A stretch of DNA of 64,000 bases from a virus. Of the stretch, positions 1 through 6,347 are shown piece after piece (position 1 is the stretch's first letter; each line of letters opens with the position of its first letter). Below the pieces are notes generated by a model. It worked only from the letters and a program-made list of their open reading frames with translations. It had not been told where the DNA came from and did not search any database. Location of the stretch: IMG/VR virus record IMGVR_UViG_3300036800_000311, positions 1-64,000 of that record; one strand, 5' to 3'. The position numbers and the translations under genes are program-made.

Positions 1-4
1 GGGG

Positions 5-1747
5 GTGGGTGGGTATCAGCCGGACGCCGATCCTCAGCAGCAGCCGGACGCGCCGCGGGACGTGGCGGAGGCTGGCCTCACGGGAGCGGCCCTCCTCGCG
101 CTCCGTCGGACCTACTCCTACGTCGCTCCGACGTCGCCAGATCCGGTTCGCCGCACGGTGGCGCTCGCTCCCGCGTTCCGCGGGGTGAACGCCATGGTCG
201 GGGAGATCACGTCGATCGTGCCGGACGTCTCGCCGGTCGAGGGCGAGCGAGCGCTCTCCGCGGCGGAGGCGCTCCAGGGCGCGCTCCGGGACTGGGCGGT
301 AAGCAACGCGTACCGACTGAACATGGGCGACAGCGTCTCCTGGGCTGGCGAGCAGGCGGGGTACGCCGAGGCCGCGGACGCGGATGGTCGGCTGATGGAA
401 TGGGTCACGGAGGACGATGATCACGTCTGTGACGACTGCTCGTCACTCGGGTCGATGCCGCCGATGCCGCTCGCGGAGTGGCCGTCGGCCCCGGGCGACG
501 GGACGACGGAGTGCAACGTCGGGTGCTTCTCCCCTGGGACGCTCATTCAGGGGCGGGTAGAAGGTGGCCTACGCGCCTCCTACGACGGGCCGATGGTCGA
601 GGTGTATACGCGCGTCGGTCATCGTCTGGCCCTGACGGCCAATCACCCGGTACTGACCCCGCAGGGATTCGTCCCCGCTGGCGATCTTCGCGAGGGCCAG
701 TACGTGATCAGTCACCGCGTCCAGGTCCAGGTTCCCGTCGAGGGCGCTTCGATGCCAGAGCCTCAAGGCCAACAGGACCCAGCCCTCGTCGAGGATATAT
801 TCGAGTCGCTTGCGGAGCGGTACCGATCCGTTGACGTGAGGTCGCGAGGTGTAGACCTTTACGGCGACGCGCGGTTCCTCCAGGGCGACATCGAGGTTGT
901 AGTGCCCGACCGCGCGCTGCTGGATAACCGTCCATGGAGAGCAACGGAGTCGCTCGGCGACCTCGTCCTCATGTCGCCCTCGACGACAGCGTCTTACCTG
1001 CCGAGTTATCGCCGCGCGGCAAAGTTCATCTTCGGTCTTAGGACGACCTCGGGACGCGTCCCACGCTGCCTGGAGGAAGACGCTCGTCCGCCCAGTCGAC
1101 TTGATGTTGGCCCATGCGACCCGACTGGCCTCGCTCTGGGTACGGAGCGACATGCCCGCAGCCCGCAACTGGAGGACCGCGCTCCCGACGCTCCATCCGT
1201 TCACATGGCACATCGCGCGCCACGTACCGTTCGTGTAGGCGTCGCTAAGCGCTTGGAGCGCCGACGCTGGTGGGGCGGGATGCCTGCGGACCGACTCCGA
1301 CGCGGCGCGCGTCTGGCGCCGAACCATCGCGGGGTCCTCCTTGATTGTCTGCCACTTCAACCGCTCCGCCTCGGAGCGGCCTCGGAGATCGACGCCCGCC
1401 TGACGAAACCGGCGACCGAGGACCCCGCGTCCGATCTGGGTCTCGTCGCTGATGCTCTTGAGCGATTCCCCGCTCTCGTAGCGCCTGACGAGATCGTTCA
1501 GGTTAGGCACTATCACTTCGCGGGACACGTATACGACCTCCAGTCGCCGTTGGGGTGGGTATCGGCAGGGGGTATTTTAGCGGCCAACTGCCGATGCACC
1601 CTGGACGCCTCGGACGTCGAGCCGACCCCCGGTGACATCTACGTTCCGACGCTGGACGACTCGCAGCAAGCGACGGTCTCGTCCCTGATGGACGCCCAGG
1701 CTCAGGCGCTCGGCGCCGCGATGCCGGACGTCGCCTACCTCGAATGA
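5..1747 (+). CDS. Minor head/head morphogenesis protein (Mu gpF/SPP1 gp7-like), 5'-partial, interrupted by an intein
   Basis: W-x-T-x-x-D-x-x-VCxxC motif (WVTEDDDHVCDDC) and a C-x-x-x-CRC motif (ECNVG|CRC) split by a Hint domain; upstream of the head genes; the frame is open from the window edge. Confidence 0.8.
   Translation: MGGYQPDADPQQQPDAPRDVAEAGLTGAALLALRRTYSYVAPTSPDPVRRTVALAPAFRGVNAMVGEITSIVPDVSPVEGERALSAAEALQGALRDWAVSNAYRLNMGDSVSWAGEQAGYAEAADADGRLMEWVTEDDDHVCDDCSSLGSMPPMPLAEWPSAPGDGTTECNVGCFSPGTLIQGRVEGGLRASYDGPMVEVYTRVGHRLALTANHPVLTPQGFVPAGDLREGQYVISHRVQVQVPVEGASMPEPQGQQDPALVEDIFESLAERYRSVDVRSRGVDLYGDARFLQGDIEVVVPDRALLDNRPWRATESLGDLVLMSPSTTASYLPSYRRAAKFIFGLRTTSGRVPRCLEEDARPPSRLDVGPCDPTGLALGTERHARSPQLEDRAPDAPSVHMAHRAPRTVRVGVAKRLERRRWWGGMPADRLRRGARLAPNHRGVLLDCLPLQPLRLGAASEIDARLTKPATEDPASDLGLVADALERFPALVAPDEIVQVRHYHFAGHVYDLQSPLGWVSAGGILAANCRCTLDASDVEPTPGDIYVPTLDDSQQATVSSLMDAQAQALGAAMPDVAYLE
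569..1528 (-). CDS. HTH-repeat plus Vsr/DUF559-like (PD-(D/E)xK-type) endonuclease encoded antisense inside the intein
   Basis: N-terminal HTH (YESGESLKSISDETQIGRGVLGRRF); duplicated motif RQAGVDLRGRSEA / RAAGMSLRTQSEA; C-terminal QQRAVGHYNLDVALEEPRVAVKV...RLEYILDEGWVLL; GGAGG 8 nt before the GTG. Confidence 0.72.
   Translation of the reverse strand: MSREVIVPNLNDLVRRYESGESLKSISDETQIGRGVLGRRFRQAGVDLRGRSEAERLKWQTIKEDPAMVRRQTRAASESVRRHPAPPASALQALSDAYTNGTWRAMCHVNGWSVGSAVLQLRAAGMSLRTQSEASRVAWANIKSTGRTSVFLQAAWDASRGRPKTEDELCRAAITRQVRRCRRGRHEDEVAERLRCSPWTVIQQRAVGHYNLDVALEEPRVAVKVYTSRPHVNGSVPLRKRLEYILDEGWVLLALRLWHRSALDGNLDLDAVTDHVLALAKIASGDESLRGQYRVIGRQGQTMTDARIHLDHRPVVGGA
1537..1579 (-). promoter_or_regulatory. 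Candidate -10 box (TAAAAT, 1579-1574) and Shine-Dalgarno (GGAGG, 1541-1537) for the antisense endonuclease
   Basis: Read directly from the reverse complement; the -10 box coincides with the rare codons ATT TTA in the intein frame; no consensus -35. Confidence 0.55.
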
Positions 1748-2409
1748 TCGGAGTCCCGATGGGGATCGAACAGGCTCATCGGGAGGTCTGGCTGGCGCCC
1801 CATGTCCGCGACGGGCTGCGCGCGGAGCGAGACGCCGCTCACGCCCGAGCGACGGCGGACCTCCTCACCCATCGTGAGGCCCGCCACGCCTATCGCCCCA
1901 GGCGGGTCGCGCGGCGGGTCGGGACGGAGGCGGAGCGCGGGACGGTCTGCGCTTGGGTCGCGTCCGCCTTGTCCGTTCCCGTCCGTCGGGCGCTCGCGCT
2001 TGAGGGGGAGCGCTTCGGACTCGGCGGAGGGGGCTTCTCCGGGTATCCGATCGTCTGGTCGTGGCTCCAGTACCTCGGCTCCGGGGAGTACGTCGCGGAC
2101 ATCGTGACCGCCCACTACCAGCAGCACGTCGACGCCCTCCCACTCCAGGTCCTCCTGCTGCCGTTCGAGACGTGCGCGTTCCTGCTCTCGCTCGCTCCCG
2201 CGAGTTGGTCGATCCAGACGGTCATCCCGCTCGGGATGCCGTACGCGACGGACGGCCCCACGGGCCTCGACGAGGTCGCGATGGGATCGAACGCGGTCTG
2301 GGGGGTCGACCCGATCCTCGGACCGTACTTCGACGACGTCGGCGCGGACGCCCCGAGCGAGGCTCGGCTATTCCTGGACGGCTCCGGCAACCCGTACCTG
2401 CTGACGTGA
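1744..2409 (+). CDS. Hypothetical phage protein
   Basis: ATGA overlap with the upstream gene, GC3-rich codons. Confidence 0.6.
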   Translation: MIGVPMGIEQAHREVWLAPHVRDGLRAERDAAHARATADLLTHREARHAYRPRRVARRVGTEAERGTVCAWVASALSVPVRRALALEGERFGLGGGGFSGYPIVWSWLQYLGSGEYVADIVTAHYQQHVDALPLQVLLLPFETCAFLLSLAPASWSIQTVIPLGMPYATDGPTGLDEVAMGSNAVWGVDPILGPYFDDVGADAPSEARLFLDGSGNPYLLT

Positions 2410-4451
2410 CCCGCACGTTCCTATCCACGGGTGGCCCTGGCCCGCCGGGGCCTCCCGGCATCACCGCGACGCTCCGCGGTGCGTGGTCCGCCGGTACGAC
2501 GTACACGGCCGGTCCGCCGCCCGATGCGGTCCTCGGGTCCGATGGCGCCTGGTACTACTCGCTGGTCAGCGGGAATGTCGGGCATAACCCGGTGGGGGAT
2601 GGGGGCGTGCATTGGGCGTCTGGACTGCCGAGTTCGGTGCTGAGCGCGGGTTCACCCGCACCGTCCCCGGCGACCGCCGGCCAGCAGATCCTCGTCCGCT
2701 CCGATGGCACGATCGCGTTCTTCGATCCGCCGACGATCAGCGCCGCTGCGTGGGGCGTCAAGCCGAGCGCGACCGCGACGGTCAACATGGCCGGTATCGC
2801 CTCGGCGATCGCGGCGCTGCCGCTCGGTCCGGATGGCGTGTCGCGTCTCGGGACCGTGGATCTCCCGACCGGCATCCTCAACGTGTCGAGCTTCGCGCGA
2901 GCCGACACCGGCTGCACGTACACGGCCGGGTCGGCCACGATCCTCGACTCGCACATCACCGCACTTGACCAGGGCGGGTTCGTTCTGGACATGGCCAACC
3001 AGGCTGACAACGGCGCGGTGATCCTCACCGTGAATCCCGGCGTCAGCTTCACGATCAACCGGCCCATTGTCAGCAGCGGGACGACCCTCACGGTCGTGCG
3101 CCCCGCGATTCAGGGGGCAACGGCCATGACTCTGCGAGGCCGGGGACGCAAGGGCGGCATCACGAACGTCTACAGCGCCGGAGGGCACTGCACGCTGATT
3201 CAGGACAACGGCAACGGCGTCACGATCGCCGGGCCGAACGGCGTCGACGGCGCAGCCAACTCGGCGTGGCAGTTCACCATCGAGCATCTCTCCTGCAACG
3301 GGCCGGGGAACACGACCGGCAACGCCTCATCGAACAACATCTACGGGTTCTACTGCACGAACCTCGCGGCGCTGTTCATGACGCAGTGCGATTTCGAGTT
3401 TCACGGCCGATGGGGCGTGTTCCTCGACCAGAACACGCCCGTAGCCGGGGTATTGCGGGACATGCTCATCCAGTACAACGGCACCGCCGCGGCGACGATC
3501 CCAACCGGAGGGCTGTGGGTGTCGGTGAACGAGCCCAACGAGGTCCACGCCGTCAAGGTCCGCTGCCTCTACAACTTCGGCTGGGGAGCGCAGCTCGCGG
3601 GCAACCAGCAGTGCGACAGCTGCGTATTCGGCGCCACGTTCATGAGCGCCTATGTTGACGGCACTCACACGCTCCTGACGAGCGGTTTCGGTGCTGTGAT
3701 CGCAGGCGGCTCAGACGCTCCGGTGATCCTCAACAACGTCGAATGGCAGGACAACGCAGGCCAGGCGGTCTTCTACGTCATGGGCGGCGCGAACCTGCAC
3801 ATCACCGGCGGCGGCGGCTACGGCGACAACGTCCAGCCATACGCGATCATCATGGAGAACGGCCTGCAGTCGTCCCTCACGATCGACGGGGTAGCGATCC
3901 ACGGGCACACCACCGCCGACGTGTACTTCATCGGACTGCACACGTCACCATCGAACCCGCCGCGGTTCTCCTGGCGCAACTGCTACACCCTCGACCCGCT
4001 GTGGGCAACCTTCCAGGGCGGCGTAAATCCCGACCTGCCCGCCAGCGCCGCGCAGGCCGCTGTCGGCACCTACTCGCTGCTCATGGGGGACGGGCCGAAC
4101 TGGACGAACCTCACGCTCGCGACGAGCGTCGTGTCCCGCGGCACGCCCGCCGCACCGACACCGCAGGCGATGGTCGATCCATTCGGGAACGTGCGGTTGC
4201 GGGGATGCCTGACGGGTACGAGTATCGGCGCGGGCGGACTGCTCGCGACGATCCCCGCAACGGACTCGCAAGGGAACAAGCTGCGCCCCGCCTACGAGAT
4301 AGACCTGGGTGCCATCTACTCCCAAGCCGCCCCGTACGCGCAGGGAATCGTCATCGCCGCGAACGGGCAGATCACCGTCGGCCCCGGCGGTGCCCTCGGC
4401 GCATCCAACTGGGTGTCGCTGGACGGCGTCAGCTTCAACACGTCGGCGTAG
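2406..4451 (+). CDS. Right-handed beta-helix (pectate-lyase-like) spike/fibre protein, possible depolymerase
   Basis: GTGA-coupled start at 2406; GPGPPGPPG stub; 'WGVKP...N.AGIASAIAAL...GTVDLPTG' beta-helix cap; Gly/Asn-rich parallel beta repeats. Confidence 0.65.
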   Translation: MTRTFLSTGGPGPPGPPGITATLRGAWSAGTTYTAGPPPDAVLGSDGAWYYSLVSGNVGHNPVGDGGVHWASGLPSSVLSAGSPAPSPATAGQQILVRSDGTIAFFDPPTISAAAWGVKPSATATVNMAGIASAIAALPLGPDGVSRLGTVDLPTGILNVSSFARADTGCTYTAGSATILDSHITALDQGGFVLDMANQADNGAVILTVNPGVSFTINRPIVSSGTTLTVVRPAIQGATAMTLRGRGRKGGITNVYSAGGHCTLIQDNGNGVTIAGPNGVDGAANSAWQFTIEHLSCNGPGNTTGNASSNNIYGFYCTNLAALFMTQCDFEFHGRWGVFLDQNTPVAGVLRDMLIQYNGTAAATIPTGGLWVSVNEPNEVHAVKVRCLYNFGWGAQLAGNQQCDSCVFGATFMSAYVDGTHTLLTSGFGAVIAGGSDAPVILNNVEWQDNAGQAVFYVMGGANLHITGGGGYGDNVQPYAIIMENGLQSSLTIDGVAIHGHTTADVYFIGLHTSPSNPPRFSWRNCYTLDPLWATFQGGVNPDLPASAAQAAVGTYSLLMGDGPNWTNLTLATSVVSRGTPAAPTPQAMVDPFGNVRLRGCLTGTSIGAGGLLATIPATDSQGNKLRPAYEIDLGAIYSQAAPYAQGIVIAANGQITVGPGGALGASNWVSLDGVSFNTSA

Positions 4452-4465
4452 CCTTGCGAGAGCTA

Positions 4466-4666
4466 TTACGCCAAGCGATGCATCTCTGCGAGAACATCGC
4501 GCGGATGCCCAGCGAACTGCAACTCTCGACCATCGGCCGTCCGCATCGTGATGTTCGAGAAGCGGACACGGCCCCGGCCCGGTCGGAGCTGGCAGGCCAC
4601 CCAACCGACGAGCCATTTCCAATAGAACTTCACGAGGAAGCGTCGGTAGCCGAGGGAGCAGGGCAC
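4466..4666 (-). CDS. Small hypothetical protein
   Basis: Fills an intergenic gap; protein-like composition. Confidence 0.3.
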   Translation of the reverse strand: MPCSLGYRRFLVKFYWKWLVGWVACQLRPGRGRVRFSNITMRTADGRELQFAGHPRDVLAEMHRLA

Positions 4667-4927
4667 CGGCGTCAGTCTACCGCCCGACTTACGCTCCTGG
4701 CGAGAACCGTGACCCCATGCTGATCCCCAAGCCGTGGAACCTCACCCTCTGATCCGTGCGGCTGCGCCTCCCGCGGGGAGCGATCCTCGTCGCAGCGCGC
4801 ACCCAGGCGACGCCGATCCCGAACCGAGCGGCGTCGCTAGCGGGCGGCGAGATCCGGCATCCGACCTCCGCGCGGACCGGACTCGCCGCCCCACATCCAT
4901 CTTCCCAACCACCGAAGGAGTAGAGCA

Positions 4928-5497
4928 ATGTCACCTGGCATCTCGGCAGTAGACGACCGCGCCGCGGTCGGCCCTGGCGGCGGATCGTTCGGCCACGACA
5001 CCCAGGGAGCGCACGGCCCAGCCGTCGACCTCCGCGAACTCGAGGCCGAGGTCCTCTCGCGGAACCCGAACCGTCGCGGGAAGCATCCCTTCCAGGAGTA
5101 CTGGGAGCGCGTCGTCCGCGAGGCGGGCGTGCCGGACGCCCACGAGACGCGCCGGATGGCGTCGGTCATCTGCGGCGAGGTCGCGGCGCTGCCGTTCACC
5201 CCGGACGACGAGACGCCCGTCCCCGTCCCCGGCTCGCAGAAGAAGACGACGGAGTTCGAGCAGCAGATCGAGCGGACCGCCCTCTCGGCGGAGAAGACCC
5301 TCGACTCGAAGATGGTCTGGACCGCCTCGGCGCTGAAGATCGCCCGGAAGGCCCTGGAGCTGCGGAAGCGGGACCCGGACGGCTCGCGCGGGATCGCCTG
5401 GGTCAACGACCCGCTGCCCGGCGAGGAGCGCATCGCCGCCCCCCTGCCGTCCTCGTTCCAGCCCGCGGGAACGGACCCCGGCGAGGACGAGGTCTGA
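4928..5497 (+). CDS. Hypothetical protein
   Basis: GAAGGAG RBS, strong GC3 bias. Confidence 0.7.
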   Translation: MSPGISAVDDRAAVGPGGGSFGHDTQGAHGPAVDLRELEAEVLSRNPNRRGKHPFQEYWERVVREAGVPDAHETRRMASVICGEVAALPFTPDDETPVPVPGSQKKTTEFEQQIERTALSAEKTLDSKMVWTASALKIARKALELRKRDPDGSRGIAWVNDPLPGEERIAAPLPSSFQPAGTDPGEDEV

Positions 5498-5499
5498 TC

Positions 5500-5667
5500 G
5501 TGGACGAGAAGCGTCCGGACTGGACCTCGGGCCGCGTCCGCGAGTCCGCCGACGGCCTGCGCGGGCGACCGTCGGAGGACGAGCGCGAGCAGCGCCTCCG
5601 CGAGGCCGAGGAGCGAGAGGTAGGCTCACGGGACCGACCGGGGGAGGGGCGGCCTCACCGGGCCTAG
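5500..5667 (+). CDS. Small charged protein (55 aa) with VRES and LREA motifs
   Basis: Manual translation VDEKRPDW...HRA*; starts 2 nt after the previous stop. Confidence 0.35.
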   Translation: MDEKRPDWTSGRVRESADGLRGRPSEDEREQRLREAEEREVGSRDRPGEGRPHRA

Positions 5668-6347
5668 ATCGCGAGGCGCTGATCCTGGAGTTTCTGGATC
5701 TTGTGCCCGTGGTGGCGCGGTCGCTTCGGAGGGACCGAGGCGAGATGGACGACCTGATCCAAGACGGGTTCGTCGGCCTGATCCGGGCGGCTCGGAGGTG
5801 CGACCCAGGGCGCGTCGACCTGTTCCGCAACTACGCCTGGAGGGCGATCGAGGGCGAGATGCGCGACGGGCTGAGAAGGATGAGTTCCGGGAGCAAGGAG
5901 CAGCGGCGAAGGGAGCGGAGGGTCGACGAGGCCCGCGCTCGCCTCGCGCGACGCGGAGTCACCACGCCCGCGGCGCTCGCCGCGGAGCTCGACATCACGC
6001 CGTCGGCGCTCGCCGCGGAGGAGGCGCTGTTCCATCGCCTCTCGGTCGTCTCGCTCAACGTGCCTCCGTACGACTCTGCCGTTGAGGTCATAGTCGACCC
6101 TGGCGAGTCCGCGGCGGATCGCCACGAGCGGGCGGCGACGGCGACGACGGTGTCGGACGCCCTGGCGCTCCTGGGCGGCCGGGAGCGGTTCGTGGTCGGG
6201 ATGTACTACTGGCAGGAGTGCACCGTCGGAGAGATCGCGGAGATGCTCGACCTGAGCGTCGTCCGCACGCAGCAGATCCTGACAGCCGGACGCGCCCACG
6301 TGAGGGCGCTACTAGAACGAGGAGGAGCAGATGCACAGGACGATTGA
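5667..6347 (+). CDS. Sigma-70 family alternative sigma factor (FliA/WhiG/SigF-like); start uncertain
   Basis: Region 2 DDLIQDGFVGLIRAARRCDP...FRNYAWRAIEGEMRD; region 4 RERFVVGMYYWQECTVGEIAEMLDLS; sigma-like sequence DREALILEFLDL extends upstream of the first GTG (5703). Confidence 0.85.
   Translation, partial: DREALILEFLDLVPVVARSLRRDRGEMDDLIQDGFVGLIRAARRCDPGRVDLFRNYAWRAIEGEMRDGLRRMSSGSKEQRRRERRVDEARARLARRGVTTPAALAAELDITPSALAAEEALFHRLSVVSLNVPPYDSAVEVIVDPGESAADRHERAATATTVSDALALLGGRERFVVGMYYWQECTVGEIAEMLDLSVVRTQQILTAGRAHVRALLERGGADAQDD

Follow-up and report, generated by a model that had tools for sequence, protein, structure and literature searches.

Inteins with a VSR-like endonuclease gene on the strand opposite their own coding sequence were recently reported from actinobacteriophages, where they occur in full inteins, those of minor capsid genes included (Gosselin, Arsenault, Gogarten, bioRxiv 10.1101/2025.01.02.630785). 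That preprint presents structure predictions, links the endonucleases to 3R3P by HHpred, and proposes that free-standing endonuclease genes have invaded inteins repeatedly and recently. Among earlier cases it cites antisense LAGLIDADG endonucleases in inteins, such as that of Synechocystis DnaX (Gorbalenya 1998, Gogarten 2002). Here we describe an intein of this layout in positions 1 to 64,000 (hereafter the window) of the virus record IMGVR_UViG_3300036800_000311. The element is very probably a mobile intein of a MuF/minor-capsid gene with a VSR-like homing endonuclease encoded on its antisense strand, and it is a further example of a recently reported kind, its layout having already been described. 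A first-pass annotation of the window had started from the premise that inteins carry their endonuclease in-frame, which the reported antisense LAGLIDADG and VSR-like cases make outdated.

Vsr-like endonucleases were found earlier in 'fractured genes', where the endonuclease gene lies between the halves of a split intein on the same strand; such endonucleases were not then known within inteins (Dassa et al. 2009, PMC2677866). I-Bth0305I, the prototype of the EDxHD endonucleases, is encoded in a group I intron and uses a His general base, H213, together with D222 (Taylor et al. 2011, PMC3239194).

The window element resembles those of the preprint in its contiguous intein, its opposite-strand open reading frame (ORF) between the splicing blocks, its VSR-like fold joined to a helical DNA-binding part, its probable minor capsid (MuF) host gene and its sporadic distribution, and the Gordonia Vividuovirus phages are related to it. 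It resides in a 105-kb soil phage, and its relatives include phages of Proteobacteria. Its ORF also departs from the published description in covering 90% of the intein, starting in block F, ending past block B and carrying Lys in place of Glu224. The words start codon, ribosome and promoter do not turn up in a search of the preprint's text, and 'purifying' is used there once, where no per-strand analysis is meant. The preprint appears not to cover the start codon and Shine-Dalgarno (SD) sequence in block F, the selection that switches strands, the Proteobacteria phages or Lys224.

As in the fractured genes, a Vsr-like nuclease with separate DNA-binding modules has its own gene inside a phage intein locus; unlike those trans-splicing halves, the window intein is in one piece and its endonuclease is antisense. 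The nuclease shares with I-Bth0305I (PDB 3R3P) a Vsr-like catalytic fold and a modular N-terminal DNA-binding region. Unlike I-Bth0305I, the window nuclease is encoded in an intein; its family has invariant D213 and Glu224 but no invariant His in sequence alignments, and its profile is closer to the DUF559-like protein 3hrl. As in the canonical bifunctional inteins (PI-SceI, PI-PfuI, TliVMA), a mobility function interrupts the Hint domain at the same general place; unlike in those single polypeptides with an in-frame LAGLIDADG or HNH endonuclease, the two functions here belong to two genes, one per strand, and the sense insert serves as filler. The antisense LAGLIDADG inteins, as the preprint's citations present them, likewise have the endonuclease on the strand opposite the intein, but it belongs to a different nuclease family.

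Results

Two reading frames, codon against codon

Codon for codon, the antisense ORF is the exact reverse complement of intein codons 17-335 (of 355), or 90% of the intein. Position 1 of each sense codon is position 3 of an antisense codon, and both frames are free of stops. The antisense ORF begins inside block F and terminates past block B. Protein models were built with AlphaFold2 (AF2) and rated by pLDDT (predicted local distance difference test), and folds were compared with 48,161 PDB representatives using VIA-align (VIA). The features of the element, including predicted helix-turn-helix (HTH) modules, are as follows.

524-1588, plus strand: class-1 Hint intein of 355 residues (translation, AF2 model, VIA fold matches)
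914-1339, plus strand: sense-frame filler, intein residues 131-272, open, rich in Arg, Pro and Ala, predicted disordered (pLDDT, composition)
569-1528, minus strand: antisense gene, 319 residues, HTH-HTH-Vsr-like nuclease; GTG start at 1528-1526, TAG stop at 571-569
1337-1501, minus strand: first HTH module, antisense residues 10-64, helices 10-18, 23-30, 34-43 and 51-64
1097-1267, minus strand: second HTH module, antisense residues 88-144, a duplicate of the first
611-988, minus strand: Vsr/DUF559-like nuclease core, antisense residues 181-306 (VIA, hmmsearch)
857-859, minus strand: codon AAG (CTT on the plus strand), Lys224 at the invariant Glu of the family (alignment with 149 representatives)
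1537-1541, minus strand: GGAGG (CCTCC on the plus strand) 8 nt before the GTG, opposite sense codons GAC CTC CAG (D-L-Q, block F)
1574-1579, minus strand: TAAAAT (ATTTTA on the plus strand), candidate -10 hexamer starting 51 nt upstream of the GTG, opposite sense codons ATT TTA (Ile-Leu, block G)

The antisense product is predicted with confidence. Its AF2 model, built on a 36-sequence alignment, has a mean pLDDT of 90.5 and contains two HTH modules followed by an alpha/beta core. Pfam recognizes HTH_58 at 26.8 bits (cut-off 23.8) and, weakly, REase_MTES_1575, while searches of the protein against PHROGs and NCBIfam gave nothing useful. The two HTH modules are duplicates of one another (BLASTP between modules, E 2e-7), and by VIA the N-terminus matches HTH domains of the resolvase/Hin/Tc3 type (Z 5.5-6.3). 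The nuclease core, with conserved positions E187 (968-970) and D213 (890-892), aligns with Vsr (1cw0_A) at Z 10.1 over 113 residues with a root-mean-square deviation (rmsd) of 2.6, with the DUF559-like 3hrl_A at Z 10.0 over 89 of 94 residues (rmsd 1.7), and with the catalytic domain of I-Bth0305I (3r3p_B) at Z 8.7. In hmmsearch the family profile matches 2lvs_A, a tandem HTH protein, at E 1.9e-5 and 3hrl_A at E 1.9e-3. The first-pass annotation had read this ORF as a 319-residue protein with an HTH, an internal duplicated motif and a Vsr/DUF559-like nuclease signature, and each of these elements is borne out by the exact register, the HTH_58 score, the modeled and duplicated modules and the fold matches.

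The sense strand tells a different story over the same codons. The complete Hint intein proposed earlier is present with all its elements: Cys1 at 524 (CFSPGT), block B TANHP at 635-649, block F GHVYDL at 1523-1540, and a C-terminus ending in AAN, with the terminal Asn at 1586-1588 followed by the +1 Cys at 1589-1591. Residues T38, H41 and N355 are invariant in 18 homologues. Pfam Intein_splicing scores 20.5 bits, below its cut-off of 35.8, and every one of the 32 chains matched by VIA at Z of at least 2 is a Hint or intein domain. The top matches (Z 11.7-11.1), among them hedgehog 1at0 (Z 11.7) and the Mtu RecA intein (Z 11.2), align 106-111 residues. The best Foldseek matches of the sense model are inteins at a probability of 1.00, although none in the PDB reaches E <=0.001. 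In the sense AF2 model, built with the 18 homologues, pLDDT is at least 90 over residues 1-66 and 281-355, 78-88 over residues 82-130, and below 50 over residues 131-272. This last part is 17% Arg and 10% Pro, in line with the earlier description of an Arg/Pro-rich middle without an endonuclease, and Pfam, PHROG and NCBIfam profiles and fold matching found no endonuclease in the sense middle. A nuclease and HTH fold is thus found on the antisense strand, and an endonuclease is not found in the sense frame; both outcomes favor an antisense gene. Our data support a nuclease encoded by a separate antisense gene rather than as part of the sense polypeptide.

Sense residues 82-130 (767-913, plus strand), which face the antisense nuclease core, are predicted to form helix-strand-helix-strand. 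This prediction may reflect a small real domain, or it may be an effect of conservation imposed by the opposite strand.

Selection on each strand

Codon alignments of nine lineages were scored in both translations of the same codons. Three loci whose inteins differ or whose boundaries did not map (L011, L014, L015) and one cut by a contig end (L006) were left out. Over the central part of the intein the antisense protein is the better conserved, and over the codons facing the N-terminal Hint region it is the sense protein.

Central part, antisense residues 1-270: antisense identity 0.30 (BLOSUM 1.15 per column) against sense 0.20 (0.31); least conserved, sense position 1, which is the antisense wobble position
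49 codons facing the N-terminal Hint region, antisense residues 271-319: antisense identity 0.275 (BLOSUM 1.06 per column) against sense 0.41 (2.08); least conserved, sense position 3

The bootstrap 95% interval of the central BLOSUM difference is 0.65-1.03, and an alignment based on the sense protein gives the same result for each strand. Closely related Gordonia phages show the same reversal at the nucleotide level, in counts of differences at sense positions 1/2/3.

Fosterous against Angelicage: central part 50/8/29; N-extein 2/0/18
Fosterous against Vivi2: central part 44/11/27; N-extein 2/0/39
Angelicage against Vivi2: central part 55/13/39; N-extein 2/0/40

In the central part, purifying selection acts on the antisense frame; the sense frame has only stayed open there, and its product is predicted to be disordered. 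Along the overlap, constraint therefore shifts from sense (Hint blocks) to antisense (nuclease and HTH modules) and then returns to sense. The per-strand comparison of homologous inteins proposed in the first-pass annotation thus finds the antisense frame conserved centrally. Its statement that the sense frame only has to stay open holds for the central part and fails for the 49 codons facing block B. As to its proposal of a separately transcribed antisense nuclease gene, the fold, the family and the purifying selection on the antisense frame speak for a separate gene; a candidate promoter is considered below. GC content by codon position also reverses, with GC3 0.87 above GC1 0.73 in the exteins and sense GC1 0.77 above GC3 0.69 in the overlap, but this is merely suggestive because the intein is foreign DNA of lower GC.

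The openness of both frames can be judged in relatives of lower GC content. The probability that a frame is open by chance was computed from each phage's own extein codon usage.

Aaphi23 (42% GC): sense frame open over the antisense gene, P 3e-6; antisense frame open over the sense gene, P 2e-9
Idiomarinaceae phage 1N2-2: sense frame open, P 3e-6; antisense frame open, P 1e-9
Cronobacter phage ES2: sense frame open, P 5e-3; antisense frame open, P 1e-3

Double openness in the low-GC relatives cannot be chance, and selection has kept both frames open.

Among the three Gordonia Vividuovirus phages (L001, L009 and L010), the share of codons that differ is 26-37% in the central intein and 8-17% in the N-extein. 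Exchange of intein alleles could explain why the intein has diverged further than its host gene.

Candidate expression signals inside the splicing blocks

Read on the opposite strand, the block F His codon becomes the antisense start codon. An ATG or GTG stands exactly opposite this His, 20 codons before the intein end, at 12 of 14 loci. Five loci (the window, L004, L007, Malisha and Aaphi23) have TGGAGGT eight nucleotides upstream of the start, and weaker purine-rich versions stand there in the Vividuovirus, Pseudomonas and Cronobacter members. The SD sequence draws on a Leu codon that is CTC in seven of the eight lineages with Leu there, while neighboring codons vary synonymously; Aaphi23 has CTC at this site though its exteins use CTC for 0 of 40 Leu. 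The CTC bias and the conserved placement support a ribosome-binding site written into block F. The GGAGG noted earlier, 8 nt before the GTG and encoded by the D-L-Q codons, is therefore present, and its link to block F is kept across distant lineages.

The TAAAAT hexamer is likewise where it had been placed, and its sense codons are as rare as claimed. Across 37 long ORFs, TTA accounts for 3 of 1149 Leu codons and ATT for 18 of 500 Ile codons; phage codon usage gives ATT followed by TTA an expected frequency of about 9e-5, and ATTTTA occurs once in the 64 kb. A TANNNT hexamer is found upstream of the antisense start in every lineage, though hexamers of this form are frequent in AT-rich genomes and their positions vary. 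One relative has a near-consensus sigma-70 promoter, TTGACA-17-TACAAT, on the antisense strand within blocks F and G, 27 nt before the antisense ATG (L004, 2446-2474 in plus-strand numbering). As a -10 box, TAAAAT is a plausible candidate.

Distribution of the element

A full HMMER scan places 1336 representatives in the antisense protein family at E <=1e-3, and 670 at E <=1e-10. Members of about 235 residues have one HTH module, and those of about 290-320 residues have two. By tblastn against 50,697 phage records the antisense protein matches 34 records at 24-38% identity, and in each of the 34 it falls under the coding sequence (CDS) of a head-morphogenesis, minor-capsid or related head gene. 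Annotation was checked for 12 of them: the Gordonia phages Fosterous, Angelicage, Vivi2, Kewpiedoll and Malisha, Mycobacterium phage Sejanus, Rhodococcus phage REQ3, Pseudomonas phage vB_Pae_BR313c, Cronobacter phage ES2, Idiomarinaceae phage 1N2-2, Aaphi23 (Aggregatibacter) and S1249. The match is opposite the head-gene CDS in every one, and the antisense gene is annotated in none. The same layout occurs in an IMG/VR contig with a portal-MuF fusion (L004) and in three metagenome contigs (L006-L008), the only loci that came from contig collections. Related-locus searches found none in genome contigs (query P0002) and none in viral contigs (queries P0004 and P0008).

Residue counts for the family come from an alignment of the window protein with its best 149 representatives. 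The antisense residue facing the block B His codon is Val or Met (complements of CAC and CAT) in 149 of the 149, and that facing the Asn codon is Ile or Val (complements of AAT and AAC) in 140. Judged by this signature, the best 149 representatives all look embedded in inteins.

The element is present at its site in some phages and absent from close relatives. Twenty-four homologues of the N-extein are shorter proteins of 215-308 residues. In the six that were read, the junction is unbroken (...[VAT]GCRC..., for example ...ECSVGCRC... and ...ECDVGCRC...). The closest intein-less allele shows 76% identity to the window's N-extein and hardly differs from it in the first hundred residues. Intein-containing relatives include P0156, whose intein is 51% identical, and L006. 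Such patchy presence at one conserved site is as produced by homing, or by homing followed by loss.

Several loci are only partly alike. The Kewpiedoll head gene (L011, 147-3257, minus strand) carries at the NCRC site a different intein, with block F ...HWVYNL and the end NHN, and its antisense frame is open for 316 codons and matches only the last 38% of the window nuclease. This suggests that sister phages hold different combinations of intein and endonuclease at one site. Partial antisense matches, over 43-57% of the query, lie in the REQ3 minor head gene (L014) and the Sejanus 'capsid maturation protease' (L015), in both of which the window's blocks failed to locate the intein boundaries. 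The REQ3 minor-capsid intein is of class 3 (bioRxiv 10.1101/2025.01.02.630785).

An altered residue in this copy

The nuclease of the window differs from its family at one position. Residue 224, in the AVEV strand and aligned with the VEADG Glu of 3hrl, is Glu in 149 of 149 other representatives and Lys in the window alone, and D213 is invariant. The change is a single-base transition, CTT for CTC on the plus strand, and is silent (Leu) in the sense frame. Other conserved positions, the 319-codon ORF and both HTH modules are intact. A Logan contig, assembled independently from this soil run, agrees at the altered base (word depth 56) and is identical over window positions 300-1800, which excludes an error of a single assembler. 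The run, the one DNA run listed as holding the sequence (no RNA run was listed), is probably the source sample and hence not an independent one. Judged from the invariance of Glu224, the nuclease of this copy is probably inactive or crippled, and became so very recently because the rest of the ORF is intact. Lys224 in an intact ORF fits the stage of a homing cycle that follows fixation, when the endonuclease is no longer maintained.

The head gene and its record

The source record is a 105,537-bp uncultivated virus from a soil metagenome (69% GC), with an exact 127-bp terminal repeat at its ends (window 1-127 and L018 2374-2500). The head-gene frame runs upstream through this repeat and spans the record start, and the first ~36 codons (VISHTAAL...) sit at the record's other end, so the ORF is 5'-truncated in the window only because of the record's numbering. 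The plus-strand ORF 2-1747 matches phrog_15127 'head protein' in a PHROG profile search (E 2e-19), and relatives of the gene carry PF04233 and MuF-like annotation; no Phage_Mu_F Pfam match was found for the window's own exteins. The intein is inserted at the conserved NCRC motif of this probable MuF-like head protein.

2-523, plus strand: N-extein, MuF-like minor head (head morphogenesis) protein (ORF list, phrog_15127)
1589-1747, plus strand: C-extein (CRC...) and stop codon (translation; intein-less relatives are continuous, ...VGCRC...)

A megablast of window positions 1-6000 against phages found no match. Downstream, the plus-strand ORFs 1744-2409 (221 residues) and 2061-4451 (796 residues) overlap by about 350 nt in different frames.

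Discussion

Our data fit a model in which one stretch of DNA serves two genes. On the plus strand, the two Hint halves of the precursor (residues 1-66 and 281-355) would fold together and splice the intein out, with the roughly 140 residues between them acting only as an open, disordered linker. On the minus strand, a 319-residue HTH-HTH-nuclease would be translated from the start opposite the block F His, using the SD sequence opposite D-L-Q, with transcription perhaps from TAAAAT in block G. The nuclease of the family would most likely cut intein-less MuF alleles at co-infection, and repair would then copy the intein in. The window copy itself may represent a stage after invasion, with a recently inactivated endonuclease in an intein that could still be spliced.

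Several points weigh against this model. In the window alone, extein codon usage (72% GC, with TTA, CTA and TCA hardly used) gives either frame a probability of about 0.2-0.3 of being open across the other; the first-pass annotation had rightly cautioned that in-register antisense ORFs are often open by chance in GC-rich DNA. GGAGG/CCTCC occurs 415 times in 64 kb and is not improbable by chance. The case for double coding therefore rests on relatives, folds and substitution patterns, not on the window alone. The compared lineages are themselves related, and products of codon bias are not true probabilities. Foldseek ranks the same nucleases (Vsr, 3hrl, 3r3p) as the top three for the antisense model, but at E of only 0.07-0.3, with no PDB match at E <=0.001, so support for the nuclease fold comes from the VIA Z-scores and the profile matches. 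Splicing is a prediction, and the penultimate intein residue is Ala in place of the usual His. The catalytic role of Glu224 is read from its invariance and its alignment with 3hrl, as is the inactivation by Lys224, and given Lys224 homing by the window copy is doubtful. A strict sigma-70 and terminator scan of window positions 300-2100 found nothing, and we found no RNA, ribosome-profiling or protein evidence for the antisense gene in the literature.

There are other ways to read the locus. First, the antisense gene could be real and yet not, or no longer, encode a homing endonuclease, being instead a sequence-specific DNA-binding protein (a regulator, a maturase-like helper or a nuclease with another role) retained because it benefits the phage. 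On that view Lys224 would be a functional change and not decay. The replacement of an invariant Glu while the ORF, the HTH modules and the other conserved positions stay intact would fit this, as would the two HTH modules, which take up half the protein. However, Lys224 occurs in one of 150 sequences and is hence young, and one transition silent in the sense frame explains it. The family's sporadic occurrence at a single conserved site, where close alleles lack the intein, fits homing, and among the nearest relatives of solved structure is a proven homing endonuclease (PMC3239194). We regard this alternative as improbable.

Second, and with similarly little likelihood, the overlap could have a true double function, in which sense residues 82-130 are a folded, selected domain of the intein and constraint acts on both strands. 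Their pLDDT and predicted helix-strand-helix-strand order speak for it, as do the residues conserved in the 18 homologues (G114 and D115 invariant, F93 and D111 nearly so) and a phrog_15127 alignment that reaches sense residue 144. Yet G114 and D115 are the codon complements of the antisense Ala-Val in the AVE motif, so that their invariance follows from antisense selection, and identity over the nuclease core is 0.20 for sense against 0.29 for antisense. No solved fold matched sense residues 82-130, and a conserved alignment can raise pLDDT where there is no real fold.

The notion that the antisense ORF is a by-product of GC-rich DNA, and that only the sense polypeptide matters as an intein with an unrecognized in-frame domain, can draw on the chance openness and the common GGAGG of the window and on the pLDDT of 78-88 in sense residues 82-130, but it is very hard to sustain when the antisense frame is the conserved one and bears the wobble signature, when its product is modeled at a pLDDT of 90.5 with a known nuclease fold, in contrast to the predicted disorder of sense residues 131-272, and when both frames stay open in relatives of 42-50% GC against odds of 1e-3 to 1e-9.

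A mobile intein with an antisense homing endonuclease is thus the reading we prefer, and it leaves room for different histories of the family. It is tempting to speculate that this nuclease family exists only as an intein-embedded antisense gene, an old mobile element, obligately double-coded, in which translation signals and splicing motifs have co-evolved, and not the outcome of repeated recent invasions. The block B signature, the placement of start and SD sequence in block F and the occurrence in phages of both Actinobacteria and Proteobacteria point in this direction, though we hold the idea tentatively and consider it less likely than its converse. If the family were solely embedded, the antisense transcript might also modulate late head-gene expression.

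The locus is a clean natural case of antisense overlap, in which about 960 bp encode two proteins codon against codon and selection switches strand along the way. The Lys224 copy provides a natural, probably inactive control. Annotation pipelines miss the antisense gene, as the 12 checked records illustrate, even in phages as well known as Aaphi23. A selfish endonuclease can ride in an intein without joining its polypeptide.

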